Assembly (NCBI GenBank): GCA_965178125.1 | Contig: OZ237760.1 | Span: 434,001-498,000 of the forward strand | DNA: 64,000 bases | Source of the DNA: Bilabrum cf. latius | Taxonomy: Eukaryota | Direction: 5' to 3' | Part shown: positions 7,465-63,334 of the stretch, piece by piece | Numbering within the stretch: position 1 is the first letter of the stretch | How the letters are laid out: each line of letters starts with the position of its first letter | Program-made: the position numbers and the translations under genes | Notes under the pieces: generated by a model | What the model was told of the DNA's origin: nothing | Seen by the model: only the letters and a program-made list of their open reading frames with translations | Database searches by the model: none

Positions 7465-7713
7465 AGGCGCGCTTGCTGGAGGGGGGGAGAGCCGTTGCTT
7501 TCGTTACTGATATTGTGAATCATTTTGATGTGCATGCCGTGTACCAATACGTAAATATGCATGAAAGAAATCTGTGTTCTTGCTGCCACGACGATTACTC
7601 GGTTTCCGGGACTGTTCTTGCCGCGTGCGAAGAAGGATCCGATCGGATTACGGCCACTGCTTGGTTGAGCGGCTCCTGCGTTCGGGACCCGGCAGAAACA
7701 AAACAAGCAAGCC

Positions 7714-25306: not shown

Positions 25307-25579
25307 TACCATGTTGTTCTCTGTGTGTGTGGCCTACTGCCATCGACCCTACTCTTTGCGTGCCGTCCTGCGGTTCGGGCTGCACGCCAAGGAGCGTCAT
25401 GGTGCATCGCTGGTGTGGCTGGCCTGGATTCACCCTGTGAATTTCACAGTCGTATCCGGATGTCACAGGGCATTTGAATTGAGAAAATTAATCGATGGTA
25501 TCCGGATTTGTAGCTACAGGCCTTCTGCTTCCACCCAAGTTTCAGACCCATCCGGATTCCGGAATCAAGCGGCACGGGC

Positions 25580-28500
25580 TTAGTCAGTGTCCGATCCGGA
25601 TTCATCGGATCCAGAACTTGACTCCTGCGTCCCATCACTGCTAGAATTAGAGTCGCTGACCACGTCATCAGCCTCCCCTGGTCTTGTAGTAGGTTGTCCT
25701 GCTGTGCTGGGCTTGTCTAAACCGCTGCTTTCGCTATCGCTTGAATCATCAGAACTTGGGTCGTCTGCACCCACCTCGGCTGCCTCTTCCACACCTTCAT
25801 TTGGCTGAGAGGACCCGATCCCCAGCATAAGGCGGACAAAACCAAGAATTCCAAGAGCTGTGGGCTGCTTCTTTCGAGATGCAGCGGCTTTCTGTTTCGC
25901 TTTCGCGCGAGCGGCGGCGGCATCAGTCGCGGATGCCCCCTGTGGGCTATTCCCAGTCGCTGCACCATCTGTACTTACTCCATCATTGCTTGAGTCAGAG
26001 TCTGAACTGGAACCGCGGTCTCGCAGCATGGCATCAGGATCATCAACAGGAGGCACTGCCTCTGGCTATTCGCTCATGAGCACCCCATACAGCTCTTCCA
26101 AGGACAGTGGCTACTGCATGGGGCTAGCTCTGGAGTCTGGCCGCGGAGTCCTGCGGCCTGGCACAAAACGACGGCCCGCTTTCTTTGCTTGCTTTGACTG
26201 GTGTTGCACGTACCGGAGCTGGTCCAGGAATGCTTTCGTCATCACGTTACCCTTCTGCAGCTCTTTGCCAAGCCTTGACCTGAAGTCGGACGTGTCTGGT
26301 CGGCTGCCGGGGCGGGCGAGCCCGGCCGCATGTGCGAGCGGTGCGGCCGCGCCTGAATGCGTCGAGCCAAGCTTCCGCGAAACGGTTTTTACAAGCGACT
26401 TATCCGCGCCTCCATTCCCAGAGCGTGGATCGACGACGGCAGATCCCGCACCGTCGGGTCCATTTGGCTATAAACCACCCTATTCGGCACTGGGGGAATT
26501 ACGCCCAGCCGTCTGATTGTCTGCTTGCCGCTGAGAGTCGCGATACACCTTCACGGCATACTCTACCAGCACTTCCTACAACTCGCTAGAAAGTTTGTCG
26601 AAGGGGATGTCTGTGCCCCTGCCTATAGTGTCGTAGCACTAGTGATAAGCTGGGAGCCACCGCAGGATGTCAGCCGCAGATGGATCAGCGGCTACCGCTT
26701 TTTCGTAGAATTGCACGAGTACCGACTGGCGCGTTTCAGGCCGCATTACAGCCACAGTGCACTGGTTTCCGCACTGCACATCACACACAGGCCTGCCCCC
26801 AGGGGTGGTCCGGGCTGTTCCGATGACCTTCACCTGAGCCAGGTGCATGAACTCGGCCTTTTCGACTTGCACCCGGATGTACCTTGCAACGACACGGTGC
26901 GTCGTCATACCCCACACAACTTTGCTGCTTGATGTAGCAAATCGCTTTCTGAACTGGCAAGTCCTGAGCGCCGTGTCCAGCGACTGCGGCCCAACACCGG
27001 GCTCAAAAGGCACGTCTGAGGCCAAGATCCAGCACGGGAACAACCTGTCAGCGTACTCTGCGGGCGACCTGTGCTGATCCTTGGGCGAGTCTATGCGATT
27101 GTACACCTCAATTCGGTCGATGGTGCACTATCTACCGAGATCCACCTCCCACCACGGGAACACCTCTCTCTGCGTGTGCGTGCAGTAATCCTCGCCCAAG
27201 CCCCGCACATCGCCGTCGATGGCATACTTAGAGCCCCTGCGGTTGAACGTTGAGCTCTGGTTTGTCTGGACGCGCGCGAGAGATCTGCACAGGTTGACAG
27301 GTGCCTCATACAGGCATCTGACCAGCTGTGGCCTCTGGACGTTGGCAATAGACACTGAGTGCCCGCAGCAACCGTCCGCATTGCTGCCCCAGGTGAACAG
27401 CTCACCTTCGCATGAGACGGCGGCCGAGTGCAACGAACCGCACGCAACTCTGCAGCACGGCCTGCCCGCCAGATCTCCGCCGATCGCTTCGAACGTCCGG
27501 AGCTGCTTCCCCAGCGCAACTCGATTGCCGGCACCATACACCTCACCCCCGGCGAGCTCCACTGAGCGCTTGGCACCGGTTCCAACCAGCCGCTTCTCCA
27601 GCGCGGATAGCGCGAGAGTGTATGCCCCGCCGCACGCCACCTGCGATATCCGGACTCCCCGTGCCACGAAGGACTCGACGCACCGCGGCTCAAGCACATC
27701 GCCCACTTGCGGAATTCCCGTGGCAGTGGCATAGCCGGGCATGGCGGGGAGCCCCAACCGCCCTCCATCTCCGCATCCCCACGTGTACAGGTGTCCCTCT
27801 GACGTCACTGCAGCAGAGTGCTGCGCGCCACATGCCACCTACACAATGTTGATTCGCCCAGCACTTCTCGGGAATGTAACCGGAGTCGGTATGGCTGCGT
27901 AGCATTCGATGTCAGGGGGTACCTCCCCTAGCCCGAGCTTCCCACTAGCTGCACTACCCCATGCCAGCACCCTCCCGGCGTCATCCATGGCCAGCGAGTG
28001 GCCTTGGCCGGCAGACACGGCAACCACGTCGTACGGCTCCAACGCGAGGAGCTGGGTAGGAATGTCCGTTGACTTGAGCCCGATGCCACGGTCAGTGGGC
28101 CCGAAGCCCTGCCCGAGCCTGCCGGCCAGCCCCTCGCCCCACGCAAACACTCTGCCAGAGGCATGGGCCAGCACTGCGTGATGCTCCCCGATGGCTAGAT
28201 CGCGCAAGCTGTATGACTGGCTCGCTTCAGTACCGATCAATGGCTGGCACTCGATAGGTCCGCTGTCAGCGTGCTGTGCACCGGGACGAGTTTTGTCGTT
28301 GCTGTATCCACGCGCAGTAAGGGGCGACATGCCAATGTGCAGCTGGGCTGCAGGCCCATCGGGATTCTTGAGGAGATACTCTTCGTCATGCAGAGTCCGC
28401 TGCCTCTGGATTCTGTACTGCACGTATCTGTTTTCCATCGAGAGCAAGAGTGCTTTCTTGCGATGCTCGGCCGCTTTGACCCGTGTTTGCAGCTGCTGCT

Positions 28501-31500
28501 TGTATGCTCCTGTCAGCGGTGCCCAGATCCTCCGCAGCTTCGCTTCGATGCTGGCAGCCCGAGACAGCTGCCCGTACTGTCTCAGGTCAGGGATTGACAG
28601 TTCAGCAAGACGCATCTGCTCGTAACTATGCTCCCCAAGCTTCTTGCACTGCAGACGGATGGCCGTTGCAAGGTCCTGTACCAGCTGCAGCTTCCGTCTC
28701 CCGGCGGCCTCGATACCGCGGAGTCGACAGGCTAACAGGACGCTTGCTTCGTCCACTGCCTGGCCAATTGTTCGTTTTATCTGCTTAATTTTGGCGTCAA
28801 AATCAGGGACAATCGGTGCTTTCCAGACTCCAAAATGCCTGGCCACCGTCTGCAGATCCAGGAACTCATCCGATGCCTCTTGTGCAGCCACTGTGCCTTC
28901 CTGCTCCGCAATCAGCTCCATCGCGGACGAGTGCTCGGCATCCACGGATGCTATGTCAACACTACGGTACTCTCGAAGTGAACCAACCCTAGTTTCATCG
29001 CGGCTTGATATCTTGCGGAAACGATCCCGATCTTGTGTGCTTGGCCCAGACCTTTGCGACTCGAGCGGGTCGCCGTCAGCATGAGGCAGAGGATCCAATA
29101 CGCCAGAGCTCTGATCCAAGCAGTGGGACGTGACCATCGGTCGCTCAAGCAGCGCGTTGCCAGCCGCTCGGAGAACATCGCGACTGGGGCCGTGCTGCCT
29201 GCTTTGATCGATCATGCCTGTGCGAGCGGCCTTGCCGGAGTGGTGCGGCTGTGCGGGATAGGCTTCCTCGTGGAATGCACCCAGCAGGCCACCGCTTCGC
29301 TCTGGCAGGGCAAGTCGAGGCACCATTGCCACTCGTTGCTCTCTCTTACTCTCCTGAATGGCTTGCGAGAGCTAGTCTAGCGACACAATGGCCCCTCTGG
29401 CTTTCCTCTGCAGCGTGATGGACAGCGCCCCGGCTCCCATGAGGGCACTTTCATGCGCTTCCAGATCCCTTAGAGGAGACTTCGGCGGGCTCCGTCCGTA
29501 TGATGACGGACCCTCTGGAAGCAAGCTTTGTCTTAGCGGTTTCGTCATTCTTGCCTTCTTCGGCTCCTGGGCCAGGGCACTGTCCTCGATCTACATGGCC
29601 CACGGAGCCATGCCAGGGGCCAGGGTGGCAAGTCGTGACCCATGCAGGCCGGGCACGTCCATCTCCACCTCTGTGCCACCTATATGGGCAGCACGTTGAT
29701 CTGGAACAGGTCTGCGTCCCTGCCGAGAGGGCGCGCCAAATGCGATCATGGTGCTGTCGCCTGCATGGGCCCGTGTCCGACTGAGGTCGCGGCCGAGCCT
29801 CACGCTCTGGTTGGCCTGCTGCTTCGGAATGGACTCCTGCCGGAAGCACCACCGCATGTATCTGGATCGCGGTGATAAGTCTCTAGACGTCTTATCTTCT
29901 TTGCCTGCCTGCCAGCCTTTGGGCAACCCCCCCATCCAGTGCAGCCCACCAGACGAATCCGCAGCCACCATTAGCCTGGAGCCGACCCTGGCAGATACGA
30001 TGGACTTGCCCCAAAGAGAAAATGTGCACAGCTAGGCATTCACGCCGAGAAAAGGGGAGTCAGCTTGGCCGGGAGACAACTCGGTTTGTGTCGCTGTACG
30101 GGGGTCTTCCCTTGGGTCTAGCTGCCGGAACCCTCTGCCAGGTTCTGCTAGGTTCTTCTCATCGCTGTCAGACAGCAAACCATCTTGGGTTAGCGCATCA
30201 GAGTCATCGCTTTGTTCGCCCCTTCGTCCTAAATCAGCACTTGGAGGACTTGCAGTCTCATCGATAGGCAATACCGCGGCATCCGCGACCCGATTCAGGT
30301 GCGGATACCTTCGGATGTCGGCTCGTTCCAGCCGTCCATCTGCCAGCGGTCCCCTGACAATAAGCTCAGAGCCGTGCGCCTGCAGGCCCCGTCTGTGCCA
30401 CTCTCGCCTCTGTGCAGCCACGCGGGCATCTACTCGGCGCTGACGCTTAACCACCTGGTGCTATGCAGAAGCACCTGGTGCTTCAGGCACCCCCCCCGGT
30501 GGTATTCCCGGCAGCCTCCCGCCGATTGCTCGTCCTGGTTCTGCTGCTGCAGCAGGGCCAGATTTTGATAACGTTGACGCGGGACCAGCAGTACCTTCCA
30601 TTCCAGCAAGGAATGCTGCCCCGGCCCGTGGGCTCAGGTTTCCCGGTCTGAGCTTCTGCGTCCACACGCGGTACAAGTCCCGATAGTGTCCCGTTGGCAC
30701 TGGGCTGACGGGCACAAGGCCTCGGAATGCGCCTCTCGTGCCAGACCCAAACAGAATCACCTGGCCGGCCTGGTCCATGGCTCGACCAAGTTCCCGCAGG
30801 GCCCTTCTCCTTGCCCGCCTCAGCATCCTCCGTCTGGTCTGCAGAACCGCTTGCCACTTGATCCAAACCTGCGCTTGGCGAAGTGACTCGATCTCAAGCC
30901 TCTTCTCCTCTACTATGAGCTCTTCAAGCCTCTTCTGCAATGTACGCCGGGGCAATCGCTCGGAGAGGTTCCTAATACCCCTTGCCGCAAGCTCTGCTTT
31001 AGCATCGCACAGGTCTAGCCACATCTTCCTGAATTCGATCGAGTCAATCACGCCCGACTGGTCCGCGTCGTATTTGCGAAACATCTTCTCTATCAATTCT
31101 TCATCTTCCAAGTCGAACTTGTAACCGAGGTACTCTAGAGCAAACACGAACTCGTCCTCATCCAGCCCGCCGCTGTTGTCTCTGTCAAACAGAGCGAATG
31201 CATCCTCTGGCCCGAGCCGAGACGACGGCTTGAATCCGATGGGATTGCCCATGGAGGGGTCTATGATGAACATGGCCTCCTTGAGCTCTTTCAAACTGAT
31301 GGCTCCAGAATCGTCCGTGTCTACCAGGCGAAAGTACTTCAGCGCTTTGGCCGTATCTAGGTGTAACCCCAGGAGGGGGAGCATCTGCTTGAACTCATCA
31401 AACTCGATCTGGCCAGAGCCGTCCTCATCAAACATCGCAAAGAGTCGCTTTGCAGAATACCTGCTAGAGCCCCTAGAGCGCGAATTTCCGATTGGTCTGG

Positions 31501-32011
31501 AGCCACTAGCCTGTGGCGCGGATGCACGGCCTGCGCCGGCTCGAGTTGGCCTTGCATTCTCCTGATCCGAGTGGCTTGAGCTGTCCTTGTCTGCCAAAAT
31601 ATCGTCTTGCAGCGTTCGCTTTCGGTGATCATCGGCGGTATCTGGCCTCATGGTTTCTTGCTTTAGCACGTCCATCGGATCGCTGCGGCGTTCATCGACT
31701 CCAGTGATCGCCTTCCCAAGCCCCCGGCCGCTGCTGTGGCTCAGGTCCATCCCAACCGGGATACGAACCTTTCCGATGTACTCTGCGTGCTACTCCTTCA
31801 ATTTCTACTTTTTGAATTCGTCGGCTTCGTCAAAATCATCTAATTCTCGCTGTCTTCCTCGAACGGCTCCCGACTGCACCTGCTCGGACTCCAGGCCTCG
31901 TTTAACCGGAGAAAGCAAGGCAAGTCGACGATTTTCATCTTCTTTCTCGGCATACTATCTTCCTTTCAGCCTGGCTTTTCTTCTGAGAGATTTTGCTCGA
32001 ATTGCGTACAT
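25580..32011 (-). CDS. Multidomain protein: four EF-hands, RCC1 repeats and an F-type lectin (fucolectin-like) domain, 2143 aa
   Basis: Eight ORF fragments in one frame joined by 15 TAG; ends TAA 25580-25582. EF loops DEDGSGQIEFDE, DTDDSGAISLKE, DRDNSGGLDEDE, DADQSGVIDSIE; RCC1 VACG..HS / WG.G..GRLG; lectin CTHT...PWWEVDLG...YNRID. Confidence 0.88.
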
Positions 32012-32135
32012 ATTGCGGCCAAGATGAAAATTGAGACGAGCGCGTCCAGAAATCGGCCCGGGTTCCGGTTTGGATCGATGCAACCGACAATGAGATAGTT
32101 TTCCCCCGGTAGTTGCTGGGGATGCCTTCAGTAGT

Positions 32136-33827
32136 ATGATATCAAACGCATTGAACCGACGGCAAGGGTAGCCCGGCCGTAGTAAAGACCCGTCTCTTTC
32201 TAGAATAACACCGGAGGTACGCCACAAGCATCGGACAATTCAGGGCGGGTACTGCTCTCATTGTTGCCAATCAGTGTAGCATTCACGCATCTTGGAGTGC
32301 AATCAGATTTCTAGGCTGGCGTGGATTGTGCTATTTGCTGTCCTGGTCTGCTTGGTTCTATGGAACCAACCAACGGTTGGCAAGCAGCTGCATTTCATGG
32401 CAGGGGAGTGGAAGACTCAGTCGAGCAAGCTCATGGATGCCGCAAGCTCTTTAGATGACCCACTAGAAGACATGGAGTGGACTCCTCGACAGGCCAGCGT
32501 CGTTGAGGATCTTGTGAACCTCCGAGCCAACTACATGAGCATCCCCAGGCAGGCCAGGACGAAGTTTGTGCTGGTGGTGGGACTTGAAAGTAGCGGTAGC
32601 AAGCTGGCCGCAAAGTTAATTGCAATGCGGTTCGGGCCGGGCGAAGATGCGGTGGAATGGAGCGGGCACCGGCACTTTCTAACCATCCACAAGCCGGACC
32701 CATCAGCAGGCCTGGAAATGTCAGGCACAGTGGTGGTCCACCGCTCCCTTCCCCACTGGGATTTCTTCCCGGACGTGGAATCCATGCTCGCCCAAGCTCT
32801 CTGCGACGGCTTCAAGGAGGCCTACATGGTGGTTGCAACCAGGGACAGGCACATCTCGTTCCGCAGCAAGCTCGCCACCCACCAGTCCGACTCGGGCGTG
32901 GCAGCCAGGGAACAAGTGGCGGCGCAGGTGTACCTGCGCTCCGTGCTCTCTCGCGGCTTGTTCCCCACCTTTGTGTTCTCCTACGAGTCCCTCATGCTGC
33001 TCGGGCCTCCATACGTGCACGACCTGTATGCTTTCGTGGGAGAGAGGCTGCACGGGGCCGACGGGGGGCAGGAGAGGGGCCCTGACGGCGTGCTCGTCGG
33101 AGCGGACAAGGGGATCAAGCCGGAGGATGATTCGATGTAGTAGGACAAGGAGGCGGGGAGTGCAGCTGGAGCCAGGGAGCAAGAGGTTGCGGGAGAGGTA
33201 CCCGGATCGTCACCAGGCGCAGGCGAACCGGACGTAGCAGCCACCGCCAGAGCCTCTGTCCGGGTGCCGCCAGCGCCAGCTCCCTCTCCGGGCAGCGGCG
33301 CTCTGTTAGGCAAAGGCAGGGGTCTCGGTTCCAAGGGCAGGGGTCTTGGGTCGGCACCAACTGGTGGTAGGCGACAGCTGGGGCAGAAGAGGGCTGGCGG
33401 TGGGAAGGTGAAGCGGATCAGGGGGCCGGCCGGCAAGGCGAAAGGGGGCGAGCTGCGCGCCCTGGACCCGGCGGGGCTGGACATGTACAGGAGAGGAGCA
33501 GAGGGCATGTGCGGGAGATCGAAGGACGTAGTGGGCGCGGTGAGGGAGGCCAGGAGGGGGGGCAAGGCCGGGGCGCAGATGAGAGAGGTGCTGGGGTGGG
33601 GTGCCGAGGTGGGGCACGGGGCGGTAGACACCTGCAGGCTGGTGGTTGAGGGCAAGGATCCGAATGCCAAGTACACCACCTGGCAGACGTGGACGGAGTG
33701 GGCGTGGCAGCTGCTGCGATACTCGCGCGCGTCCGTCCGCCGGGATGCATTGGAATCCATTGACCAGGGAAGGCACTAGGCGATCGAACCTTGGTGCACA
33801 GACCCGTGGCGCGGTAACAGCAGCTGA
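32136..33827 (+). CDS. Type II membrane sulfotransferase-like (P-loop) protein
   Basis: N-terminal TM LAWIVLFAVLVCLVLW; VLVVGLESSGSKL (5'-PSB-like loop), VATRDRHISFRS (3'-PB-like), FSYESL. Frame continues through tandem TAG TAG 33138-33143 and TAG 33777 to TGA 33825-33827. A 63-nt in-frame intron at 32217-32279 is possible. Confidence 0.6.
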
Positions 33828-34126
33828 GAGGCTGGGATTTGCCATCCTAGTGGAGGACGTGCGGGGTGCGTGCTGACTGCCTACATCCGGAATCCGGATG
33901 TCCGTATTCCTTAACTCCGTGCTGGGCGACCAGTAGGGCGTCTGAAACGCAAGCAGTGGACTGTACAGTTGATTCGTTCAGTTGGTTTGCTCACTTTCCT
34001 TGCTTGTCGCCCCAAATCCAGGATAGGGCGGCGTTGACACATCAGATTCCGACCACCGGATGACTCATAGGCCTACTTTTTGTCCACGAATCGGGCACCA
34101 GACCCCTCGTGTCACCTGGCCTAGTC

Positions 34127-35854
34127 TCACGGGTGGATGCGGCCCCTGGACTGGGACCTGGTCACGGGGCGATGGGCCCCGGCCGCGCGCCTCTGCGGGG
34201 CGGCCTGCACGGGCCTGCGGTCGTGCTCCTCGATGGGTCCCGCCTCGGCTGCTCCCCCCCACCCAGCCTCGCCCTCATCCTCATCCTCAGCACCCGCCCG
34301 GGCGTGTCTCTCTGCCACAGCCCTCCTCCTCAGCATCTGTGTCTCGGTCTCCTGGAACTGGGTGGCCTCCTACAGCAGCTCGTTCACTCTGCTGCTGCGG
34401 CGCTTGCGGGCTGACCTAGGCTTGCGAGAGGAAGCGCGCTTCTTGGGCTTCTCTTCCTCCTCCTCTTCCTCGACGTCCTCGATATCTTCCTCGCTAGAGG
34501 GCTCATCGCTGGGACTGCCTTCGCCATCCGCGTCACCATTACCGTTCTGCACGGCCGGCTCCGGGCTGGCCTCCTGCCTCGACTCTCCCTTCACATCCTT
34601 GATCTCGTTCTTGCTCTCGTTCTTGTTCTTGCCCTGGCCCATGCCCGTGAGACTGCCCTTCCCCCCCAGGCAGTACCTCCTCACCGCAAGCATCACGAAG
34701 AGGATCAAGTAGGACGCATACATGATCACGCCCGCGGCGTAGGAAAAGTCCGTCATGCCCCTGCACCCATGCTCGTGGAAATGGGCGTAGTAGGGCACCA
34801 TCACGCAGACCATCACTCCCACTACCATCTGGGAGATCTGCATGGCAGTCACGATGAAGTCCCACTTGGGCTTCTGCTTGGCTGCAACCAGTGCGTAGTA
34901 GCAGTACATGACGGCGTGGACGGAATAGTTCATCGCGATGAACCACAAGCCAGCGGCGTTCTTCAGCTTGTAACTGTACCACGCGTATAGCATGACCGTG
35001 ATATGGTGGTAATAGTGCAGCAGGATGAGGTTCTTCTTGCGCAGCACGATGAAGGCAGTGTCGAACAGCTCCACGGGCTTGCTGTAGATGAAGAGCATCA
35101 CCCACAGGCCAGTGGCACCAACGCCATAGGCGGGCTCAGCAGCAGCGCACATCTGCACAAATAATTGTCCGGGGGAGGGGAGGTGGCGAAGCAAAGTGGG
35201 CTCGGGCATGGAATGCTTTGGGAGAGCGCAGTGATCAGTGGTGCGCCGGTTGTTGGTTTCCTTACAGAGTAGTGGAGCCCGCCAGCCATGATGTTGCGAA
35301 TCAGGTGAGGCACTGTCCTAAACGCACCAATGATAGAGAATATGCTCAGAAAGGCATTCCAGGCAATGAGAGGGCTGCGGTGAGGCTTGGTGCGAGTCAA
35401 TCGAAGAACTGAGGTGGGTAGGCGGTATGATATTCTGTCTGGTGCGAGCGAATAGGCATCCAAAGACTCACACTCTCAAGTCAAACGGTTTGCTATTCTT
35501 CATCAACCTCTATCCACCGAACACTAGGATAACGTACGCCGCTGAAAGAACCCAAGGCATCCACTCGAACCAGATAGCAAAACCAAACGGTCGCAACGGG
35601 TTGAACGTATTTTCCCACTCCGAAGGGTACAGAAACTCCATAGCTGTAAACGTTTTGTACAAGGGCACCACGCTCCGGCCTTCGTTGTCACGTAGATCCT
35701 CTACATCGGGATTGAACCGAGAAAAGCTCTGGCTGCCGTTTGTAAACAACTCTGTCGCCCACTCCTTGTTTTTGACTAGCTCTTCCGTCACATTCGGAAA
35801 CATGCCTTCATTAACATACAAATGAGAGTCGAGAATTTCATCGGACATAGCCAT
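34127..35854 (-). CDS. Fatty acid elongase (GNS1/SUR4/ELO family, ELOVL6-like)
   Basis: Exons 35854-35472, 35374-35266, 35152-34127. Motifs SKPVELFDT, LHYYHH, MNYSVHAVMYCYY, TAMQISQM. TAG at 35510 (VFGG-TAG-RLMK) and 34370; ends TGA. Confidence 0.93.
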
Positions 35855-36006
35855 GCTTGCCACTCGTGCAGACCTGATCGTCAACGAGTGGCAGAGCCAA
35901 ATCCAATAACAGCACGTAATAATCGGCAGGAACGGTCCGAACGGACATTCTGGATTCGAACTTGGCTAGGTGTGTAGCCCGGATGCTAAACAAGATAAAT
36001 AGATTG

Positions 36007-37081
36007 TCAAGTCATTGTTTGATACTGGGCAAGCATGCTCTGCGCCTCCGCCAGTACCTCTGACGGCAGCGGCCCCTTGCTGACTGGCTTCGGCCTGTCC
36101 AGCTCATTGTCACCGGCACCTGCCACTCGCCCGCTGTCACTGTCACTGGATCCTGTCACTGGCAGCTTTTCCTCGATTGGATTGCTAGCACGCTTCTATT
36201 CCTATACATCACTTGCCGCACCGGACTGTTCCGACGCTCCAGCGAACGCAGTCGCGCTGGCCATCATGGGGGCACCAAGCTCGCCGAGCACTTGCCCGAT
36301 GCTCGCCTCTGCCTCTGCCTCTGCCACCGCTGCCACCGCCGACCCATCCCCCACCGCGGGCTCCCGAGGACGTTTGCTGCCCGCGAGATACGCCACACGG
36401 GCAGCCGATGAACCGCCCGATCTGCTCGTCACACCAGCCCCTGCTTGCGACCAGGAATGGCCTCGGGAGGCGTCCCAGCTGGTGTCCCCACTGGTGGTCT
36501 CAGCTGCCTTGCCCACGTGAAACGCGGCAGTTTCCTGCTTTATGGGAAAGAAATTAAATCAAATTATAACCACAAGTGGTACAGCAGAAACGAACAGCCG
36601 CAGGGGATAATTCTCAGGCATTCCTTACTAGTCGAGCTGCGAGCACTCGAAACACGTCCGGTGCTCGGAATATGGAGCCGCCAGACACGTAATATGCCGC
36701 CGTTAAGTCAACTCGTGTAGGAGATAGTCTGCGAGTTTCGTGTATTCGAAACAGTTTCGGCTCCTGACCCGTCGGTATGACGCGGTATTCCACCCCTGTG
36801 AGCTGGGCAGCAGCCTGCTGCGTTAGGCCTTGCAGGATGGCTCGCTCATTGATACAGCTCCTATCATAAAAAGGAGAGCAACTAAAATATGCCATGAGAG
36901 TCTGGGTGTTTAGCGGGTTTGATGCTAGCCAAGCATCAGCTCGGAAGCAGATTGCTGCGCAGACCAAAGGGCAACAAGCGCCACGCACAGGAAGGTTATT
37001 ATCCCTAAACCAAGGACATGAGCACATAATTACGCATCACAAACACCCACAGTAGCTATCAGCATCACCAGATCTGGCCAT
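36007..37081 (-). CDS. MED6: Mediator complex subunit 6
   Basis: Exons 37081-37051, 36954-36629, 36534-36007. Motifs YFSCSPFYDRSCINE, LTGVEY, EPKLFRI, AAYYVSGGSIFRAPDV. Two TAG in the tail; ends TGA. Confidence 0.88.
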
Positions 37082-37206
37082 CTTGTTATGAATTGAGGGA
37101 ATATATTTTTCAGCTTTCTTTGGGTTCCTGGCGAACCTAGACGAACTTCTCGACCGCGAGAAAACATATTTTTGGGCCATAGACTGCGGCGCGCGAAGGG
37201 TTTTCC

Positions 37207-40200
37207 ATGTCTGGGGTATCATCAGATATGCTAGCAAGTGTTGTTGGTGCCTTGAGGACTTTGTCAGAGAGTTAGCCTACTGAAGATTCGTTAGCTCGAG
37301 CAAGCCAACTGCTCGGGGATGCAAAAGCATCGCCACAAGCATTACCACTCGCGAGCATACTGCTTCAGCCCGGTAAAGTCCCACGAGATGTTACAACGCG
37401 GGCGGTGCTGTTTGGTCTGCAGATTTTGTCTTCATAGGTGCGGGCTAAACGGAGAGGCCCCCCAATGACTGGGATGTAGCGCCTATTGCTTGGATTTGTC
37501 CGGAACCTTCCTAGGGAACTGTCAGGGTGTCCTTCAGCAATTCGTAATCGTGCTGCCATGGTACTGGGGCAGCTGGCGGTGCGAGAGTACCCGTAGCAAT
37601 GGCCCGAACTCATGGATGTTTTGAAGCAGATGCTCTCGTCTGGTGCGCCAACATACGAATACGTTTCGTCCATGGTGTTGTAGACACTGTCAGAGCAGGC
37701 AGCGAGGTGAGCGTGCACGCGAGACTGCAATTTCGCGCCAGTGAATATTGTTGCCATGAGCGCTTGAGATGCCTGCTCGATTAAGTTGTGCTAGTTCACT
37801 TGCTCATCTGTTGTGCGCCCGCAAGGACCCCCTATGCTTGTCATCGCAGCGCGGATTTTAACGGGAGCATTCCAGCCAGGCGACGAAGCGAGATTTTGAA
37901 AGGGCTAGACGGCTGCATGAAGGAGCTCGGTGCCATGCTTCTCAAGCGTACCCGTGCTGCCTTCGAGAGGTGCAAAGACACGCCCAAGGACAACAGTCCG
38001 CACGCCGAGCTCTGTGCTCAGCTGACAGCGACTATTTCGTCTATGGTAACGTGGCTCTCCGGCCCCTTGCTGCGCCCCATGGCGCTGGACCGAGTGCTCC
38101 CACTGCTGTGCCGCATCGATGGAGCACAGACCTCGTGCGCTGCTGCCGAGTGTCTCGTGCAGTTGGCTGGACGCTCTTACAAAGCAGCGGAAGATACTGA
38201 TCTGCTTTTAGGTGCCATGTACGCGTGCATGATGGCTGCACAGCAGGGGAGGGCGGTGTCAGCGGGTAAGCCGCTATTTGGCGCAGGACAGCGGGGAGCG
38301 AGTGCGCCTCCAGCCGTGCTTAGCTTCCTGGGAGACGCGTGTGCCGAGCCTGCGCGCCCCGATTTCTTTGCCAGGCACTCCATCCACGCTCTTTGCTTCC
38401 TATGCACTCGACAGGCAGGGCAGCTGGTGCAGATTGCCACCGGTGCAGCCACCGTCCCAGCCTCTGCCGTCTGCATGCTGCGATCTATCGCCGGCAGAGA
38501 CGCAGCTAGCGCCCCGCCTGCAGCTGTGGGCGCCATGGCTGTCGCCTCTGTTCTCCGTGCGCTTCTGGCCGTCCTAGAGCATCCCTGCCAGACCTTCGCG
38601 AGCCTTGCACCTCAGGGAATCGAGGCGATCCTGAGGCAGTGCAGGACAGTGACGTGGAATGACTCAGTGCTGGCCAGACCAGAGTGCCCGGGGCTCAAGC
38701 CCAGGCTACCATCCGCCGTAGCTGCTATCATGCCGCAGGTCTGCAGGGCGCTGGCACGAGTCATGACTAAGGATGTGTCTTTTGCGTACATGTAGGCCAA
38801 CCCGATGGGCGGCGGAGACACGCCCCAGCCACCGCCCGAGACCACGTGCACGTTCTTGCACGGGCAGGTGGACGGGCTGGGAGAGTACCAGCAGGCCCTG
38901 TCCACGATCAGGTCGCACGCGGGGCGTCTGCTGCAGGTGTGCGGGGCCAGCAGCCCAGCGAGCGCCACCCAGGCCCTGACTGCGCTGGCCAATCACCTTG
39001 CGGTGCCCCTCTCGCAGACGAAGCCGAACGACGGCCTAGAGTTGGCAGCTGGCGGGGGTAGGTTCGCATCCAAGGCGTCCTCCTCCTACGTGGCGCTTGA
39101 GGCAGCCACTTTGGCCACGCAGCACCTGGCGAGTGGGCTGCCAGCAGAGGCAGTCAAGCCGGGAAGCCCACTCCTGCCTGCACTAGGCGCTGTCGCCGAG
39201 GCGTGGTGCGAGAGGGTGAAATCGCCCGACCCGCGGCTTGATGGACAGTGCATGAAGGGCGCGGTGTCTCTATGGAGAGTCACCATGCATAACCGGAAGC
39301 TATTGCAGTCGCTCATCGGCAGGCTGTTTGCAGCAGCAGGGGCCCAGGTGCACCCTGCAGAGAGCGCATCGGGCGGTATCGAATCGGCCCCCTCGGATCG
39401 GAGGCACTCCGCCTGCAACGGACTGGCGAGACTCGGTCGAAAGCTTCCCGCAGTGCTGGTAGGCTTGTTACCGGAGCTAGCCAAGCGCTCGAAAGCGCTG
39501 ATCGAGTCTGGCGTGCTCCCTAGTACTTGCGACACGCTGGTTCTCGAGATGCTCGTGTCGGTTAGCAATGCCGACCCGGACAGCGGGAGGCGCGTCAAGT
39601 TTTTATCCGACGTGTTGCAGCTGCACCTTGGATTTCTCGGGTCAAAACAGGTAGCAGAGGCGCTGAGCAGCCCGCAAGCGATGCTCCGGTTCGTTGGTTT
39701 GCTGCTTCCTGCCGGTACCACGCCCCCACCCCTGCCTGCCGGTGCGCCTGCCTCTGCAGCTGGCACATCTTCTGGCCGGCGCGACTTCTTCTTGCGGTTG
39801 TTCTTCACGCTTTGGACCGTCGGCCGCCGGTCGTTGCCCAAAGGCGACTCCCCGCCCCCCTTTTCGAGCCACTGGCGCGTGGTGCTGCTGGCGGCCATGC
39901 GCACGATCAGCGCTATCCATGGCATGTTTGCCCCAAAAGCGCAAGAGGTGCTGCTGTCGCACCCCGTTGGGCGCTTTGTGCTTGCAATGCCAGGGGAAGA
40001 GGTGCGCATGCTGCTGGGCAACGACTCGGACGACGTGGAGGCACCGGAGCCAGGCACCAAGGAGCACCAGGCCTGGGATGTGGCAGTGTGGGTTAGCCGA
40101 GTGCTGTGGAACAGCCAGGCGCTCTTTGGGCTGGCTGCTGCCCACGGCAGGTTTGGTCTGTTTTCAACGGGAGGGATGCAGGCACTCAAGGCGCACTGGG

Positions 40201-41645
40201 AGCACGTGCTGGGCGCGTCAGCGGCTAGGGTGCCGCCGCTGCGCGTGGTGCGGCTGACAATCAGGAACGTGGTGCTTCCCATTGTCAGGCACTGCCCGCC
40301 GGGCGACAGGAAAATGCTGCTGGGGCGGTTGGGTCCGTTTCTGGAGGGGGTCGTGGAGAGACTCGACGAGGCGGCCAAGCTGAGATCGGGGGCAGCGGCC
40401 GTGGCGGGCGGCACCGCCAGGCGGGGGCCTGGTCTACCTTCAACGGTCGGCCCCGGCGGGTTCAAAGGGGAGGCCATAGGCAGCATGCCATCCTCGGGTC
40501 CGGGATCAGCCAGCGACCCGGCTCACGTCAGGGTGCCTCCGCCGGTGCCACCGGAGACCGCAGATGCGCTCCGAGACAAGGTGCTGCTCGAGACGGGGAA
40601 GGCCATCGTAGACGTCTTCTATACGGTGAGCGGCGCGCAGCACAGACTAGAGGCCATGACAGCGGCAGCGCTTGCAGGGAAGAGAAGCAAGAGTGCGGCC
40701 AGCGGGGCTGGCAGCGGGGCTGGCGGTCCACTGCCCGACAAGGTGGCTATCTGGCGTCTCAAGCCTCTGCAGGGGCCCGGAGAGGGCAAGAGCATGGGAC
40801 CCAATTCTCTGGGGAATCTGGGGGCGGATGCAGCTGGGCTGCGGCGGTCGGTAATGTTCGAGGTTGCTACCACGCGTGGACCTATGCTGCGGGCGGGTCT
40901 AGCCGCGCTGGAAGGCACGTGGACCACGGCACTATCGGCCAAGCGGGCCTGCGAGGCTTGGACCCTGATGCTGCCAGATGCAGTGAAGGTTCCGCCTTCG
41001 CATGCGCTCGTAGCTGGCCGGCTGTTCTCTCAAATAGTCAAGGCTCTCGTGGTGGGCAAGCCATGGGTGCAGCCGCTCGAGTCAGACCTTATTGCGCTGG
41101 TGACGGACATATATGTCAGGTTTGTGCTGCCAGGATCGCCAGCCGACCGGGCCGTCTAGCTAGCTGCTATCGTCAACACGACAGCTGTAGATGCAGCGAC
41201 CAAGGGCGGTTCTCCGCCAGGAGCAGGACCACGACCGGACGGAGCTGCGGCAGGTGGGGCAGCCGGCGGGCCCAAGCCCCCAATATCTGACCTACCGAGG
41301 AGGTTTCTGTGTTCCCTTGGAGGGGTGCCGGCCGAGCAAGTTCGCAGACTGGAAGCGGAGCTAGTACCCACCTCCAAGGCCAAGTCAGTGAGAAAGCGGC
41401 TGCGGGACTTCTTGCAGAACGTGGCGGCATTCGCAGTGCCACCCGAAGCAGCCGGCGCGTCGGGAGGTCTCGTACGACCGGCGGCCAAGGAAGTGGCAGA
41501 CCTGCAGGCCCCTGTGCCCCGGTGGCAGGAGTAGGCCGAGAGGGAGAAGCAGAAGCAGGATCTGGAGCAGCAGGAGAGAGATGCTGCCATCGACACGTAC
41601 AGGTCCGTCCTGGGATCGCAGCAGGACGATGACGATGACTTGTAA
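37207..41645 (+). CDS. XPO5: Exportin-5-like karyopherin (HEAT repeats)
   Basis: Exons 37207-37706 and 37850-41645. LFGLQIL, REYP-TAG-QWPEL (XPO5 REWPQHWPDM), IPARRRSEILKGL, RRHSAC. Eight TAG; ends ...DDDDDL-TAA. Confidence 0.8.
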
Positions 41646-41995
41646 TGGGGCGGGAAGATGATCGGATGGATGGAGAGGGCGGGGGCGCTTGGTGAGTTGA
41701 GGTTGAGGTTGCCCAAATAACATGGAGCGATTGAATAGACGGCACCCGGACACGACCCAATGGCGACAGCAAATTGTCGGTTTCTTCCACAGCGACCTTG
41801 GCACTCTAGGGGCCTAGCAAGCAAAAAATCGACTCCGAACCCCTGCTTCCTGTACTCTGGATTTCGCCTTGTTCAACTCTCCACCGCGCGCAGAGCTGCG
41901 GTGCGGCGGGTTCAGCCAAGCGGCTAGTCTGCCACAATACCTTGCGCCCAACTCACCCTTTTCTTCTTCATCTACCTTCTTCTGGGACTGCCAGA

Positions 41996-44820
41996 CTACG
42001 TGGTATCCACTGTGCCGGTGGACAAGTTGCCGGTGCCTGCACTCGCTGCCCCAGCACCGTTATGTGACCCATCGGCACCACTGTTTGCTATCGCGGCACC
42101 GACAGGGTCGTGCACTTGCTCGTGCACCGCTGCTGCCAGTGCTGCAGCCCGCCCCATGGAGTCGTTCGATCCGAGCGCAGGCAAAGCGATCGGCTCCCCA
42201 CTGATCTCGAGCAAAGGTTCCTCATCCGAAAATGGTGCCGCAGCAACATGCCCATTGGAATCACCAGTCGATTGCCCGCTCCACTCGCTAGGCAGCACCT
42301 CCCCTGCCCCTGCGACAGCACTGGAGCTCGCTCCATCCACTAGGCCAGCCTGCCCCTCTGCATGGGGATCAGCAGGCAAGCTCGCAGTCATACCTGTGGG
42401 CGCGGCAGCGTCGGGCTCCGCATCAGTGTAGTACCTGCCCTGGTCTGTCCCGAAGAGGAAGTCCAGCAGGTGCGCATTGGCACCCTTGAAATCGGACCTG
42501 TTCAGTGCCAGGGCCAGAGCCATGGCGGCCGCAAACATGATGCAGTCTCCGAACGGGAGCCTAGAGACCCATCCTCGCCGCTCCAGCCACTGGAACACAA
42601 CCTCCACGCCCTTGGGCATGCAGTACAGCATCAGCTCGCTCACGCGCTTGTCCGACTCGAGCATGAGCGGCAGACCGGATAGCATGGCAGCCACGCCGCA
42701 GTGCCACCACGCGTCCTTGCCCCTGGCCTGCCGCAGGGCACATATCGTCAGCTTGACCACGGTCACGTACAGAGTCAAGAATCCAGTGGACCGCGCAATG
42801 GCAGCCGACGTCCGTAGCACGACTCGCACCGGATCCTTCATCAGCAGCTTGGTCCGGAAGAGCAGCAGAGGAATGAGGTGCACAGGTGCATACACCCTGA
42901 AGCTCTTCTGGATCAGACCGGGGATCTCCTTCAGATTGCCGGCAACGCAAGACTCACCGCGGTGCCACGCCACATCGCACGGCCGGAAGAACTGGGGCCC
43001 CACTTGCACCCCGGGCAGGATATCCACGGGCCAGGCTCCTCCCCGCAGCGCGTGCTGCACGCGGCCCGCCGCCCCGCATCCGCAGGGCACTCTGTGGGCC
43101 GGGTCCGCCCCTCGGTCGATCTCGTTCAGCACGCTCTCCGCCACGCCTCGGTCAAGCAGTGCCTGCCTGGCCGCAGTGGACATTGGCGCGATGGCATGCG
43201 TCTGCCTCGTGACTTTAAAGCCGGGACGGGGGTTGGAATCGTCCACGCGCAGGCCAGAGACAGTGGGATCCGCAATAGGCCGGCACGGCTTCGGGCGCCC
43301 AGTGTCACTAAACACGGCTGACTGCGGGGCAAATGCGTGCGGGGACGGCTAGGGCTGCCCCACAGGGCCAGCAGAAGAGGCGTGCTACTGCACTCGAGCC
43401 AAGCCGATCGCCCCGAGCAGCTCCAGCCAGCTGCTGGGAAAGAAACCGCGGGGGCTGCCGGACGAGCCCTTGCTGGCTATCGCAGCGCTTCCAGTGGACT
43501 GATGCTACGTTGCAGGTGTGGGCTGAGCGGCTGCATCCAGTCGAGACTCAGCAGCTGCTTTGCCCGCCGAATACGCCAGCCCGTACCTCCTAGATACCGT
43601 GCTTGAGTCGACCCTGCAGTGCGGTGCATCCGCGGATTGGATCCCTTTCTGGGCCATCCACGCCGTTCCACTGGCAGACTTGGCGGCCGCCCCCACGTTC
43701 AGCTGGATGCCGCTTTTGGCGCCCCGCCGCTGCGACGTCCCGGGGGCTGCTGCCCGGGCTGCCGCTGCATTGTCGCCTGCCCTCGCACTCGACTGGGTCC
43801 CCGCCGGGTTCGATCTTGCCGCAGGGGGCAGCGAGGGCCCCGAGTCCGTGTACTGGTTGACCCCGCTGTGGTAGTCCAGCGGGACATCGTCGCCATCGTC
43901 ACCGGCAATGGCAGCGGCATGGACCGAAGAGTAGTCCGATTGCTCACTCGCATCATTCACCGAGCCTGCCCCCGCCTGCTTCTCGGTCGCATTCGCTGCT
44001 GCAGGCGTGCCAGTACCTATAGGGTGCCTTTGCTGAGATAAAGCCATCGGGTGGGGGAGGGCAGCGGGCGGCGCTGCCGTGTGCGCCGCCACAGCGGATG
44101 CGATTCCAATCGCATCGCTGATGCCCCTTAGGTCCAGGCCCATGGCCGGCTCCACGATGGTCCAGTCGATCGCGTGCCGGTCGAGGTTTGCCATGTTCAG
44201 CAGCCAGCGGAGGTACCCTTGGTCCAGCAGGGTGCGGTCTCCCCAGATGAGGGCGGTGAGGATGGGCACGTTTGCGATCCCGAACAGCAGGTGGGCGAAG
44301 TAGGGCACCCGCGTGATGTACTGGCGCCGCATGAGCGTGTGCAGCGCGGCGTAAATGGAGCGAACTAGGATGTAGAGAGCGATGGATTGGCGCCGACTGG
44401 GCGTGTCCACCAGCAGAGCCAGGGCCCCAAGTGCCCCGGCTCCTGCGCTCGTCCACCTGTCATCCTTCTTGCGCAGGTGCACAAGGGCAGCGCGACCTAG
44501 CGAGGACAGCAAGACCATCCCGCCGATGAACACAGCAAATCTCAAAGAATCCTTCGACAGTAACGCCCTCACGGCTGCTCTGGATCTACCCTTTCGAAGA
44601 AGCGTGATCACGCATTCTAGAGAAGCCTTCACGGCGTAGGTTGCAGCACTCGCTTTGAGAGCTCGAAGTAAGCCGTCAACTGCGAGTCGCTGAGGTTGCG
44701 GCAGCCCAGAGCGCAATCGTCTTTCTAAATAGTCACTTCTGCCAGCTCGTAGCTGCTGGCTAGCGATCCTTGCCGCCTTCTCGCTCTAGTTCCTGATGGG
44801 GCTCGGTGGCCCTCTTGCAT
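41996..44820 (-). CDS. TMEM135: TMEM135-like multipass membrane protein; 3' end unresolved
   Basis: ORFs 44725, 43505 and 41996 are in one frame joined by TAG. Duplicated TM modules (SLRFAVFIGG...RRQSIALY; SFRVYAPVHLIP...RSTGFL...RVSELMLY). Start taken as ATG 44820. Confidence 0.75.
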
Positions 44821-47663: not shown

Positions 47664-48524
47664 TCACTGCCTAGACTCGGCCGATTCGGATGCGCTCGCC
47701 CCGGCATCCCCCGCTGCAGCTGCCGTCTGGGCAGCAGTCGCACTCCCAGACGTGGTCTTGGGGACCTCGCCAGCATTCGCGATCTGAACGGGGATGACCG
47801 GCTTCAGGTCGATGCAGAACATGCTGGATATCTCCTGGATCACGTCCATGCCCTCAACCACGCGGCCAAACACGACGTGCTTCCCGTCGAGGTGAGGCTG
47901 GGGTGCAGCCGAGACGAAAAAGACGCTAGAGTTGGAGTCTACTCCCGAGTTGCACATGCTCAGAGTGCCCGGCACTGTGTGCCGGCCAACGAAATTCTCG
48001 TCCTCGAAAAATCGGTCCTCTAAAGCAGACCAGCCCTGTCTTCCATCCCCCTCCAGGAAGTCGCCGCCTTGCAACCCGAACCCGGGCCGCACGCAGTGGA
48101 ACGAGCTTCCCTTGTAGCCGCGCCCAACTGGCGCTTCGCATAATCTCACAAAGTTCTCCGCTGTTCGCGGGCAAATATCGTCCTGCATGAAGGTAATACA
48201 TACCGAAATGGAACCAACGTATACAGCTAGCCATTGGATAAGCACCAAACCGGTCATCGCTTTAGTTTGTGGTCTCACGGCAAGCTCGAACACTACCCTC
48301 TTTGGGTCGCTTGACTGATCTCCTATCCGAATATCAAAGTAGGCCTGTCGCCTAGGTTTATCATGCAATGGGATTTCTGGATACGGGGCTACCTGTGGCT
48401 GCTCTACAGCATCCAATCTTTTCTGCTCGAGCGCACGGAAGTACCAACCACGGTTCTTTGCTCGCCTGGCGCCTCGCATGAGCCCACCTAGACGACCAAC
48501 GCATTGATTTCGAATTGACGCCAT
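47664..48524 (-). CDS. Cyclophilin-type PPIase domain protein with Arg-rich N-terminal extension
   Basis: YFDIRIG, PRTAENF, YKGSSFH, QGGDF, FEDENF, PGTLSM, HLDGKHVVFG. In-frame 96-nt intron 48278-48183 (GTGAG...TGCAG); ends TGA. Confidence 0.93.
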   Translation of the reverse strand: MASIRNQCVGRLGGLMRGARRAKNRGWYFRALEQKRLDAVEQPQVAPYPEIPLHDKPRRQAYFDIRIGDQSSDPKRVVFELAVRPQTKAMTGLVLIQWLAVYVGSISVCITFMQDDICPRTAENFVRLCEAPVGRGYKGSSFHCVRPGFGLQGGDFLEGDGRQGWSALEDRFFEDENFVGRHTVPGTLSMCNSGVDSNSSVFFVSAAPQPHLDGKHVVFGRVVEGMDVIQEISSMFCIDLKPVIPVQIANAGEVPKTTSGSATAAQTAAAAGDAGASASESAESRQ

Positions 48525-48717
48525 ACTGCACAATGCCAGTCCTCCAACTATGCCGTTAGCGAGCTCACAAGCGGCAGCCGGTCAGAGGCTGGCCTAGCGA
48601 ACTTCGTTGAACCTTCACAAGAACTCATCAGAAAGGCTTCGAGTCGTCGCGAGTGCTCCGCTCTCGCTGCGATTCACAGACGGCAAAAATGCGAACGAAC
48701 GAATGAATTAAATAAGC

Positions 48718-55187: not shown

Positions 55188-55414
55188 TAGCCTATTGAAG
55201 CGCCGTGGAAGACAACAGCCAGATCTATCGAATAGAATGTATTTCATGCGCTGACATTGCACTGGTAGGCCTGGCCCTGGGAGTCCGGGAAAGCCCTCCT
55301 GGACAACGGCAATGACAGCGCGATTTCCGCGAGCTCACTCGTCACTGTGGCACCTCGACTGTTTCGATCTTCAAGTTGAATCCCTAAGTAGATCTAGGAA
55401 CCACCAGTTTCAGA

Positions 55415-57477: not shown

Positions 57478-58826
57478 TCAATCAAGTAAATCAAAAACTG
57501 GATGCTGTAGCAGATCTCGAGCTGCCGGTCTTTGCCGAGGATCTTGTTGCATGCACAAACAAACCAAATCAAGCAAATGCGCGCATACAATGGGTGACTA
57601 CACAACCATTGCTGGGTCAATCTCTGACAAAGTTCTCATGAAAAAACCCTCATGGACGGGAGTACACAGGCTATCGAAAGTCATCTTAGCTAGCTTGAAA
57701 CTTCCTTGCTATTTGACGAGGTCCTTAGGATATCCAACCCTAGAGCCGATGCCGAATTTAGCCTCGATATCGTACGTTGAAACTTCCTTGGAGCCAAGTA
57801 CAGACGTGTCAATCAAAGCGTTTAATTCAAGTAAACTGAACTTGTCATCTCTCTCAATTATAAGGGGGTAGTGTCGGGCAGCTATAGAGCGAATGATAAC
57901 CCCGATAGCCCACACGTCAATCTTATCACTTTGCTCGTGTGAAGCAATGAGCACTTCGGGCGGTCGAAATCCGGCTGTGCCAGCGCGCTCTGCTTTTGCA
58001 GATGGCAACGAGCTGGCTGGAATTGGCGACAATATTCTGCAACCTACATCACTTCTCCCCGGAACACTTAATGCGCCTGCATGCAGGATTTTCTTTGGTG
58101 CAGGTGCTCTTGACTTTTTCACTGAGCAAACTTCTCGGAACTACTTGGATCCAACTTCAATTGACGGCTACGCCAACCCGTAGTCGATTAATACACCACT
58201 TCTTCCGTCACAATCGTACAAGAAGTTTGCCGGCTTGACATCCCTGTGCACTATACCCGCGGATTGCACCAGCGCGACCTGCTCAAGCAGCTGCCTAGCA
58301 ATCTGTACGAGTTCAAATAGTCCGGCATCTTCAAGAAGATACTGCGGGGCACAAGTATCCAAACAATATTTGATTCTCTAAGCATGAATATATATGCCCG
58401 CGAGGAGTATTGCAGGTTGGTCAGTGTCTCACCCGGATGGAAGCTGTGGCTCTAAGCTGGGAGATGAATATATGACTGTGTGGCACAGTGGCCGCAAATC
58501 CACAAGATAGACACTCTGACCCCACCCTGCGAGGCAGTGGTGTGATGTGACTGCTCGTACGAATACAACATGTTAAATGCGTTTTTGACCTATTCTGGCT
58601 TTGCCAGCGTGATCTCTCACACTTGCTCAAGCTAGCGCAAGCAATTGGTTTCTCGATGCACCCTGGCCAGTTTATTATCGTCGTTTATGAACTTGACAGC
58701 TAGGTCTGGCGCTTCTCGGGTCGATTTAAACTAAGCGGACTACACCGAGGCGAATGAACCTGAACCGAGCGGCTCTCCTGCTACGATTCCAAGCTTATCT
58801 AGCGGAAACTAAGCAGCAGCGTCCAT
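57478..58826 (-). CDS. CDC7: CDC7-like Ser/Thr kinase
   Basis: LGSGSFASV, LAVK, IVHRDVKPANFLY, LIDYGLA-TAG, insert, RAGTAGFRPPEVL, IDVWAIGVI, DPRQRP...LQHPVF. Two probable introns in 58378-58620; 8 TAG; ends TGA. Confidence 0.85.
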
Positions 58827-62272: not shown

Positions 62273-63334
62273 ATGCGATTCATTTGCTCGTATAAGCATT
62301 CTGTTGCTTCGGTGGTATTCTGTGAGGCGCACTTGACGATGACGCCATTGTTGGCGATTATTGCAGTTGCTCGGTCCTGGCTGATGCATCGATTCGCCAA
62401 TTCGTGACTTTGCACCGCAGCGGCCGCGGTTTCTATGGAACGAATAGCAAAGACAGTAACTCTTCGAATGTCTGCGGACAGATTGCAGATCTTCGCCGAC
62501 AACAACGAGTGCAAAGCCTACGCAGAATTGAAAGTTGCAAGTGTATTCGACGATTGGCGGGTAGAAAGCCGGGCTGATAACGTAATTGGCCTCGGTATTC
62601 CATCTAAAGCACTTGCAAGCGCCTGTAAATCAAGCTAGGATGCCTTCAAGACGACATTTAGGCTGACGAAGCGCGGCGGAGCCCCGTTCCTGTCATTTCA
62701 AATGAGCAACGAGGACGAAACTCGCGTCTACACCGCTGATCTCCCGGTAGTGATTCTCGTTGGGAGCGCTGCTTAGGCATTAGAAGAACCGAGCGTTCCG
62801 TCCGTGACTCTTCAGATGCAAGCCCCGAGTCCACGTGCCGCCCAAGCCGTGCTCGAGAGGATGAAGGCCCTCCGTGCCAAGCGGGTGCAAGTGGCTGCTG
62901 CCACCGCTGGAGTCGTGTCCTTCAGCGTCAGGAGCGACCTAGTCGCGGTCCAGTCGTTTTTCTAGGACCTCGAGGAGGCAAGGGCGGGCTCAGGGGCCGG
63001 TTCGGCAGGAGGGGGCCACCTCACCGTGGAGGGCACCGCAGACCTGGGTGCCCTCTTGCTCGTGGCGGCGTCGGCGGCTGCAGCCCCGAAAGTGTCCGCG
63101 CACGTGCTGACAGTCTCTGCACCATCTACGCTTGGATGGCTCTGCGGCCTTGAGGGCGGCATGGGGTCTGCGGTCTTTTTGCTAGCTTTGGACGACGTTC
63201 GAGTGCAGAGGGTGAGTGCCGGGCCAGGGGGCGATGGCGAGGGCGATGGCGAGGGCCAGGAGGCGCAGGACGGCGGCGCGGGGTCGGAACTAGGGGCTGA
63301 GGCAGTGAAAGGTATGAGCGGCAAGGAGACGTGA
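62273..63334 (+). CDS. HUS1: Checkpoint clamp (9-1-1) subunit HUS1
   Basis: Exons 62273-62321 and 62421-63334. MRF..., RIAKTVTLRM, ALASACKSS-TAG-DA, RLTKR...PFL, DLPV, EP, VLERMK, SFF-TAG-DL. TAG at 62636, 62774, 62963; ends TGA. Confidence 0.85.

Follow-up and report, generated by a model that had tools for sequence, protein, structure and literature searches.

UAA and UAG are hardly ever reassigned separately in nuclear genetic codes, and every independent split of the pair is a test of why this is so. Whether such a split has taken place is the question raised by a stretch of 64,000 nucleotides from contig OZ237760.1 (assembly GCA_965178125.1, positions 434,001 to 498,000 of the forward strand), here called the window, with all coordinates counted from its first letter. 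An initial annotation of the window had proposed that UAG and UAA are uncoupled in its genes, and this proposal is supported both by counts within the window and by the exportin ortholog of a related species. We consider it very likely that UAG is a sense codon here, most likely for glutamine, that UAA and UGA are the sole stops (NCBI translation table 15), and that this code serves a GC-rich, intron-poor nuclear genome and is found in at least two related species.

UAG is a sense codon in these genes. The window has a G+C content of ~60%, and a scan for open reading frames (ORFs) and Pfam domains identified roughly twenty eukaryotic protein genes, among them formin, carboxylic-acid-reductase-like, EF-hand/RCC1, ELO elongase, MED6, exportin-5-like, TMEM135-like, cyclophilin, Hus1 and kinase genes. 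The standard code allows no ORF longer than 888 codons; reading through TAG extends this maximum to 2297 codons and raises the summed length of ORFs of at least 400 amino acids (aa) from 9,881 aa to 23,701 aa, compared with 10,794 aa when TAA is read through instead. Pfam domains continue in the same frame past many TAGs (FH2 after 13, RCC1 after 7 and RING after 9), and in-frame TAGs are found within the Hus1, RCC1 and Xpo1 domains themselves. Across 20 listed genes, 19 carry the codon, for a total of 110 in-frame TAGs in 17,160 codons. After training on seven long ORFs from the window, a codon-usage score remained positive downstream of TAGs, including downstream of a tandem TAG-TAG (Table 1).

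Contigs from three runs (X5, X7 and X8) align to the window and skip GT..AG introns of 94–143 nt, and we therefore take them to be derived from RNA. One of them, X5 record 11, spans 37848–41655 with no gap and no differing letter, three TAGs included, and the contigs covering the ELO gene likewise cross the TAG at 34370 with its letters unchanged. Hidden introns and RNA editing are therefore ruled out as the source of these codons.

TAA is excluded from the reading frames, far beyond chance. So that TAA would not itself define the ORFs, we counted it in ORFs bounded by TGA only, 17 of which were judged to be coding by codon score or Pfam match (15,586 codons). These contain 101 in-frame TAGs and four TAAs, one of which is the proposed stop of the RCC1 gene, at codon 2220 of 2224; the other three fall at codons 20–27, 5′ of the first ATG. 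Codons ending in A are common in the same frames (CAA 158 vs CAG 481, GAA 216 and AAA 133), and about 33 TAAs (32–38) would be expected if TAA were synonymous with TAG. None was observed internally (Poisson P ~1e-14, or ~4e-15 for an expectation of 33), in agreement with the earlier claim that no TAA was found in reconstructed exons, and the two other frames of the same 17 ORFs contain 102. The exportin-5-like gene, which was counted separately because it is spliced, has eight TAGs in a coding sequence of 1432 codons and a single TAA, its last codon.

The TAA that ends the exportin-5-like gene is a real stop, because the ortholog in contig L002 of the related species has a TAA at the same residue, similarity then ends, and the RNA contig ends nearby. 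The C terminus of the ortholog reads ...LGSQQDDEDEEL-TAA and that of the window ...LGSQQDDDDDL-TAA, and the blastn alignment between the window and L002 ends 2 nt past the TAA, with unrelated sequences downstream. A more distant homolog, P0178, terminates at the same place (...DDDDDAF). X5 record 11 ends at 41655, 10 nt past the TAA, which we regard as weak evidence, and the RNA contig of the convergent gene starts 107 nt after that end. Reading through the TAA would add 619 codons, up to a TGA at 43500–43502, in antisense to the TMEM135-like gene. The exon joint upstream (37704/37848, GT..AG, cut +2) is itself seen in the RNA contig. We considered the GTAATG within TTG-TAA-TGG (41640–41648) as a possible splice donor and rejected it: the RNA contig is unspliced at this point, L002 has CTC-TAA-TGC, and P0178 ends there. 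The exportin-5-like and MED6 genes are divergent, with the MED6 ATG at 37180 and the start of the exportin transcript contig placed by us at ~37182.

The related species emerged when aligned ELO relatives were used to search metagenome contigs. The search returned three contigs, L001–L003, which are mutually 99.9–100% identical, represent one species and have a G+C content of 52–56%. The gene order ELO–MED6–exportin-5-like is common to window positions 34127–41645 and L002 positions 310–8000, and the coding parts share 69–81% nucleotide identity. The exportin ortholog of L002 is 76% identical in amino acid sequence over 1255 aligned residues; it has nine in-frame TAGs in exon 2 and seven in exon 1, and no internal TAA in 1,472 codons. 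Three TAG codons occupy identical positions in the window and L002, and the reassignment is therefore older than the split between the two species. Those at 37477–37479 and 37594–37596 lie in exon 1, the latter within the conserved motif REYP-x-x-WP, where TAG is followed by a Gln codon in the window (37594–37599) and by a second TAG in L002. TAG at 41532–41534, 37 codons before the exportin stop, is also TAG in both species, and ~75% amino acid identity continues after it.

A search of a representative library with the exportin protein returned close relatives (P0174–P0179 and P0184) that are fragments of 48–252 aa. P0179 and P0184 begin or end exactly at L002 TAG codons; gene calling under the standard code has therefore shattered the genes of this lineage in public databases. 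None of the close-relative fragments spans the last 37 residues of the protein; P0178 did, and was used above. The MED6 ORF of the related species also ends in TAA, in a region where the C-terminal 60–75 residues cannot be aligned between the two species, so that this end is not positionally confirmed.

We scored 20 gene ends, a count that omits the gene at 3–2837, whose end lies beyond the window, and the open ORF at 63335–64000; by construction, no gene end was scored as TAG. The ends comprise 18 TGA and two TAA. The initial annotation had listed 19 TGA ends, one more than we count, and two TAA ends, both of which the sequence confirms where they had been placed: 41643–41645, after ...DDDDDL, and 25580–25582, after ...ESGSDTD (TTA on the forward strand, TAA on the reverse strand). 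Its statement that TGA dominates termination also stands, although no special mechanism is needed to account for it. TGA dominates because base composition (~60% G+C) predicts it once TAG is gone: the off-frame ratio of TGA to TAA (561:102) yields P = 0.39 for two or fewer TAAs among 20 ends. In the less GC-rich relative, TAA ends both visible genes. As had also been cautioned, the TAA of the RCC1 gene is followed five codons on by an in-frame TGA, which we located at 25565–25567, and the RCC1 end alone therefore cannot separate stop from sense. Comparison of the C-terminal 570 aa of this gene with the metagenome contigs gave 99 pattern matches, none of them confirmed, and thus no comparative support for the TAA at 25580. 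The comparison of gene ends with RNA contigs covered the region from 25 to 45 kb.

Alignments from four genes give good support for glutamine as the residue that UAG most likely encodes. Alignments of Hus1, ELO and both exportin exons yielded 25 ortholog columns in which the window or L002 has a TAG. Opposite that TAG, the closest relative has Gln in nine columns and TAG in three; the others hold Arg (3), Ala (3), Ser (2) and Gly, Asp, Asn, Leu and Lys (1 each). When the 22 partners other than TAG were scored by substitution-matrix likelihood, Gln came first, followed by Arg at −7.6 log-likelihood units (BLOSUM62) or Lys at −15.1 (BLOSUM80), and Leu is outside the five best candidates. The three TAGs of the Hus1 domain face Q, K and K in human HUS1 and L, K and Q in P0001, which is 60% identical. 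The most telling single pair comes from the ELO gene, whose TAG faces Q in P0054, a protein of 98% identity. Conservation is low at many TAG sites, which is what one would expect of a codon that became widespread once it had been reassigned. Counted as a Gln codon, TAG makes up 110 of 804 (14%) across the 20 genes.

The source lineage is probably a stramenopile. Among the best 120 matches of a search with the ELO exon, 12 carry organism names, and ten of these are stramenopiles at 45–54% identity, from Nothophytophthora, Peronospora, Chattonella, Heterosigma, Nannochloropsis, Triparma and Ochromonas. The remaining two are a metagenome-assembled genome labelled as an archaeon and one further entry, which we take to be ichthyosporean. 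A protein atlas query with the same exon was uninformative as to taxonomy.

How one release system might part UAG from UAA can be outlined with two components. A single mutation in the anticodon CUG would give a tRNA-Gln with CUA, able to decode UAG but not to pair with UAA, and an eRF1 that had lost affinity for G at the third position would still release at UAA and UGA (compare PMC5304391). Changes that weaken UAG recognition would be expected in the eRF1 N domain, at GTS, L69, NIKS or YxCxxxF. PMC5304391 predicts a tRNA with anticodon CUA and reports eRF1 changes, namely T32G in Iotanema and Ala at the L69 position in the rhizarian exLh. The window and L001–L003 yielded neither a tRNA gene nor any match to Rfam, and we found no eRF1 among the Pfam matches of the window's 28 scanned ORFs or in the related-species contigs.

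We weighed whether UAG could be read in two ways, as sense inside genes and as a terminator near some 3′ ends, as in Condylostoma or karyorelict ciliates. In three genes, a TAG that could be a true stop falls no more than seven codons before TGA (the TMEM135-like gene at −4, gene 17911 at −5 and the RRM gene at −7), and the end of the exportin-like RNA contig 10 nt past the stop hints at short 3′ untranslated regions (UTRs). However, the last ten codons of the 20 genes contain three TAGs against 1.28 expected (P = 0.14), and CAG (9 vs 6.1 expected) and CAA (4 vs 2.0 expected) are in similar excess; nor is TAG depleted in the last 10–20 codons, in what is a small sample. TAGs near gene ends were accordingly rejected as fossil or working stops, since their excess is not significant. 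MED6 has two TAGs 63–65 codons upstream of its stop. Both species retain the TAG that lies 37 codons short of the exportin stop, with conserved protein beyond it, and the ELO tail is likewise conserved past its TAG, with ELO, P0054 and P0055 all reaching the same C terminus (...RSQSRGR(I/L)HP). Moreover, no TGA or TAA is found within reading frames, which sets this code apart from the ambiguous ones, and the other 3′ UTRs measure at least 150 nt. Over the 20 genes, a double meaning of UAG is unlikely.

Nor does it seem at all probable that UAG is sense but specifies another residue, such as Arg, Lys or Glu. Arg occupies three of the 25 TAG columns, and occurs again in P0055, while Ala occupies three, and Arg was merely 2.45 log-likelihood units behind Gln before the exon 1 data were added; with all pairs included, Gln is ahead by at least 7.6 units, is the commonest of the non-TAG partners (nine of 22, against a Gln content of ~4% in the exportin-like protein) and is the residue found in P0054. 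Leu, the assignment in exLh, appears in one column. We judge it highly improbable that UAA was reassigned alongside UAG, as in a code of the table 6 type, and is rare through GC-richness alone. TAA is indeed less frequent than either other triplet (450 occurrences on both strands, compared with 986 for TAG and 1545 for TGA), but the frequent in-frame CAA, GAA and AAA predict 32–38 TAAs where the genes have none inside, two orthologs place TAA at a conserved C terminus, and read-through at 41643 would produce 619 codons antisense to the next gene. An artefactual origin of the TAGs, in unrecognized introns, through RNA editing or in ORFs of pseudogenes, is barely credible: although only the 25 to 45 kb region was compared with RNA contigs, the spliced contigs there span exportin exon 2 and the last ELO exon, TAGs included, without gaps or changed letters, nearly all listed genes contain TAG, and the ortholog in the related species has the same feature together with a protein-level pattern of conservation.

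Several points weigh against UAG as a glutamine codon with UAA and UGA as the only stops, and against the setting we propose for it. The codon score is not independent evidence, since its training genes came from the window itself. The window offers two TAA ends, one of which has a TGA five codons later. The runs that supplied the spliced contigs are labelled merely 'RNA?', X5 being labelled 'probably DNA', and the ends of contigs are not ends of transcripts. Thirteen of the 25 columns pair the TAG with a residue other than Gln, and the weight of the Q of P0054 depends on the genetic code used to predict that protein. The TAGs of the carboxylic-acid-reductase-like gene, for which we found only distant homologs (~30% identity), stand at variable positions of solved homologs (T/S, or unaligned) and are uninformative about the residue. 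The stramenopile placement is based on one protein, through the ELO exon. Finally, the roles of the tRNA and eRF1 are ones that we infer, and neither gene lies within the window.

Codes in which UAA and UAG (together, UAR) both encode glutamine form NCBI table 6. According to PMC11687900, they occur in many ciliates, some ulvophyte green algae, hexamitin diplomonads, Streblomastix and Amoeboaphelidium. UAG is glutamine in those codes as it is here, whereas UAA is a sense codon there and in the window ends genes and is kept out of reading frames. In the context-dependent codes of Condylostoma, karyorelicts and Blastocrithidia, a standard stop is translated inside genes, as in the window; our 20 genes differ in keeping two dedicated stops and in displaying no positional effect on the reading of UAG.

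Reassignments of UAG only are few. Those named in PMC11687900 (McGowan et al. 2024) are exLh (Leu), Iotanema spirale (Gln), Scotinosphaera (Ser) and Protocruzia tuzeti (Gln), together with phyllopharyngean ciliates, in which UAG became Leu once and Gln twice; the same text describes table 15, with UAG as glutamine and UAA and UGA as stops. The initial annotation was correct about the rarity of such cases and about those it listed, but its list was incomplete, lacking Scotinosphaera and Protocruzia tuzeti (PMC11687900). Iotanema spirale, a table 15 organism, shares all three assignments with the window, has UAG at variable, Gln-compatible positions and lacks in-frame UAA (PMC5304391). It is a fornicate, whereas the best named matches of the window are stramenopiles, and it is known from transcripts only according to that text, whereas we report on genomic DNA. 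UAA is the dominant stop in both taxa treated in PMC5304391 (Panek et al. 2017; in exLh, UAA 56 and UGA 15), whereas TGA is the main stop here. The ciliates Hartmannula sinica, Trochilia petrani and Protocruzia tuzeti resemble the window in reading UAG as Gln and retaining UAA as a stop; their UAGs are spread over gene bodies like other Gln codons, which was argued to speak against a double meaning, and 93.5–100% of their aligned C termini end in UAA (both from PMC11687900), compared with 90% TGA in the window. Unlike these ciliates, the window has long, intron-bearing genes and 60% G+C. UAG and UAA are likewise uncoupled in Rhizaria sp. exLh, a member of the SAR supergroup (PMC5304391), but UAG is Leu there, whereas in our columns Gln fits far better than any other residue tested.

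Table 15 is thus a known variant; the novelty lies in the lineage and in termination that is dominated by TGA. Possibly, although we would not yet call it probable, this is the first nuclear stop-codon reassignment in a stramenopile, in an undescribed clade of at least two species with UAG as Gln and UAA as a stop, and also the first GC-rich, TGA-terminating example. A full-text literature search, which did not extend to subscription journals, supplements or very recent work, found no paper tying a stramenopile to nuclear UAG reassignment. A non-ciliate case with nuclear DNA and a relative sharing the trait allows the change to be dated and a suppressor-like tRNA to be sought, and it could reveal which eRF1 residues let one release factor keep UAA and UGA yet drop UAG. 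If this is indeed the first stramenopile case, public genomic DNA and spliced RNA would let the tRNA(CUA) and the eRF1 change be read from the assembly. Because gene callers that use the standard code shatter the genes of this organism, its genome should be annotated with table 15.

Table 1. Coordinates of the stop and sense codons, exons and intron discussed in the text.
Feature	Position	Strand	Details
TAA ending the 2219-codon EF-hand/RCC1/F5-8C gene	25580..25582	−	ORF 25583–32239, 15 in-frame TAG
Tandem in-frame TAG-TAG	33138..33143	+	Gene 32094–33827; ~228 further codons with positive coding score
TGA stop of the ELO gene	34127..34129	−	C terminus common to P0054 and P0055
In-frame TAG in the C-terminal tail of the ELO fatty-acid elongase	34370..34372	−	Q in 98%-identical P0054, R in P0055; codon score positive beyond it
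Exportin-5-like exon 1 (Xpo1 domain)	37207..37706	+	5 in-frame TAG
Exportin-5-like intron, 143 nt	37707..37849	+	Contains TAA 37782–37784, upstream bound of the exon 2 ORF
Exportin-5-like exon 2	37850..41642	+	3 in-frame TAG
TAA ending the exportin-5-like gene after ...LGSQQDDDDDL	41643..41645	+	Ortholog TAA at L002:310–312, same residue
TGA stop of the convergent TMEM135/Tim17-like gene	41912..41914	−	267 nt from the exportin TAA; X5 record 12 starts at 41762
Three in-frame TAG (62636–38, 62774–76, 62963–65) in the Hus1 domain	62636..62965	+	Pfam Hus1, E = 1e-32

Three further features of the window were observed. A tandem array at 399–2443 comprises 13.9 copies of a 147-nt (49-aa) unit with 91% matches and sits within the open-ended ORF 3–2837 on the reverse strand; the array encodes a Gly/Ala/Ser-rich repeat protein without a Pfam match. 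Between 56000 and 60000, G+C falls to 0.49, compared with ~0.60 elsewhere in the window, and codon scores are low in the RING-finger gene (55388–57193) and the protein-kinase gene (57478–58428, reverse strand). The cyclophilin ORF (47664–48581, reverse strand), which lies outside the stretch compared with RNA contigs, has an in-frame insertion (...FELA-VRPQTK...FMQ-DDICPRTAENF...) that resembles an unspliced, stop-free intron.

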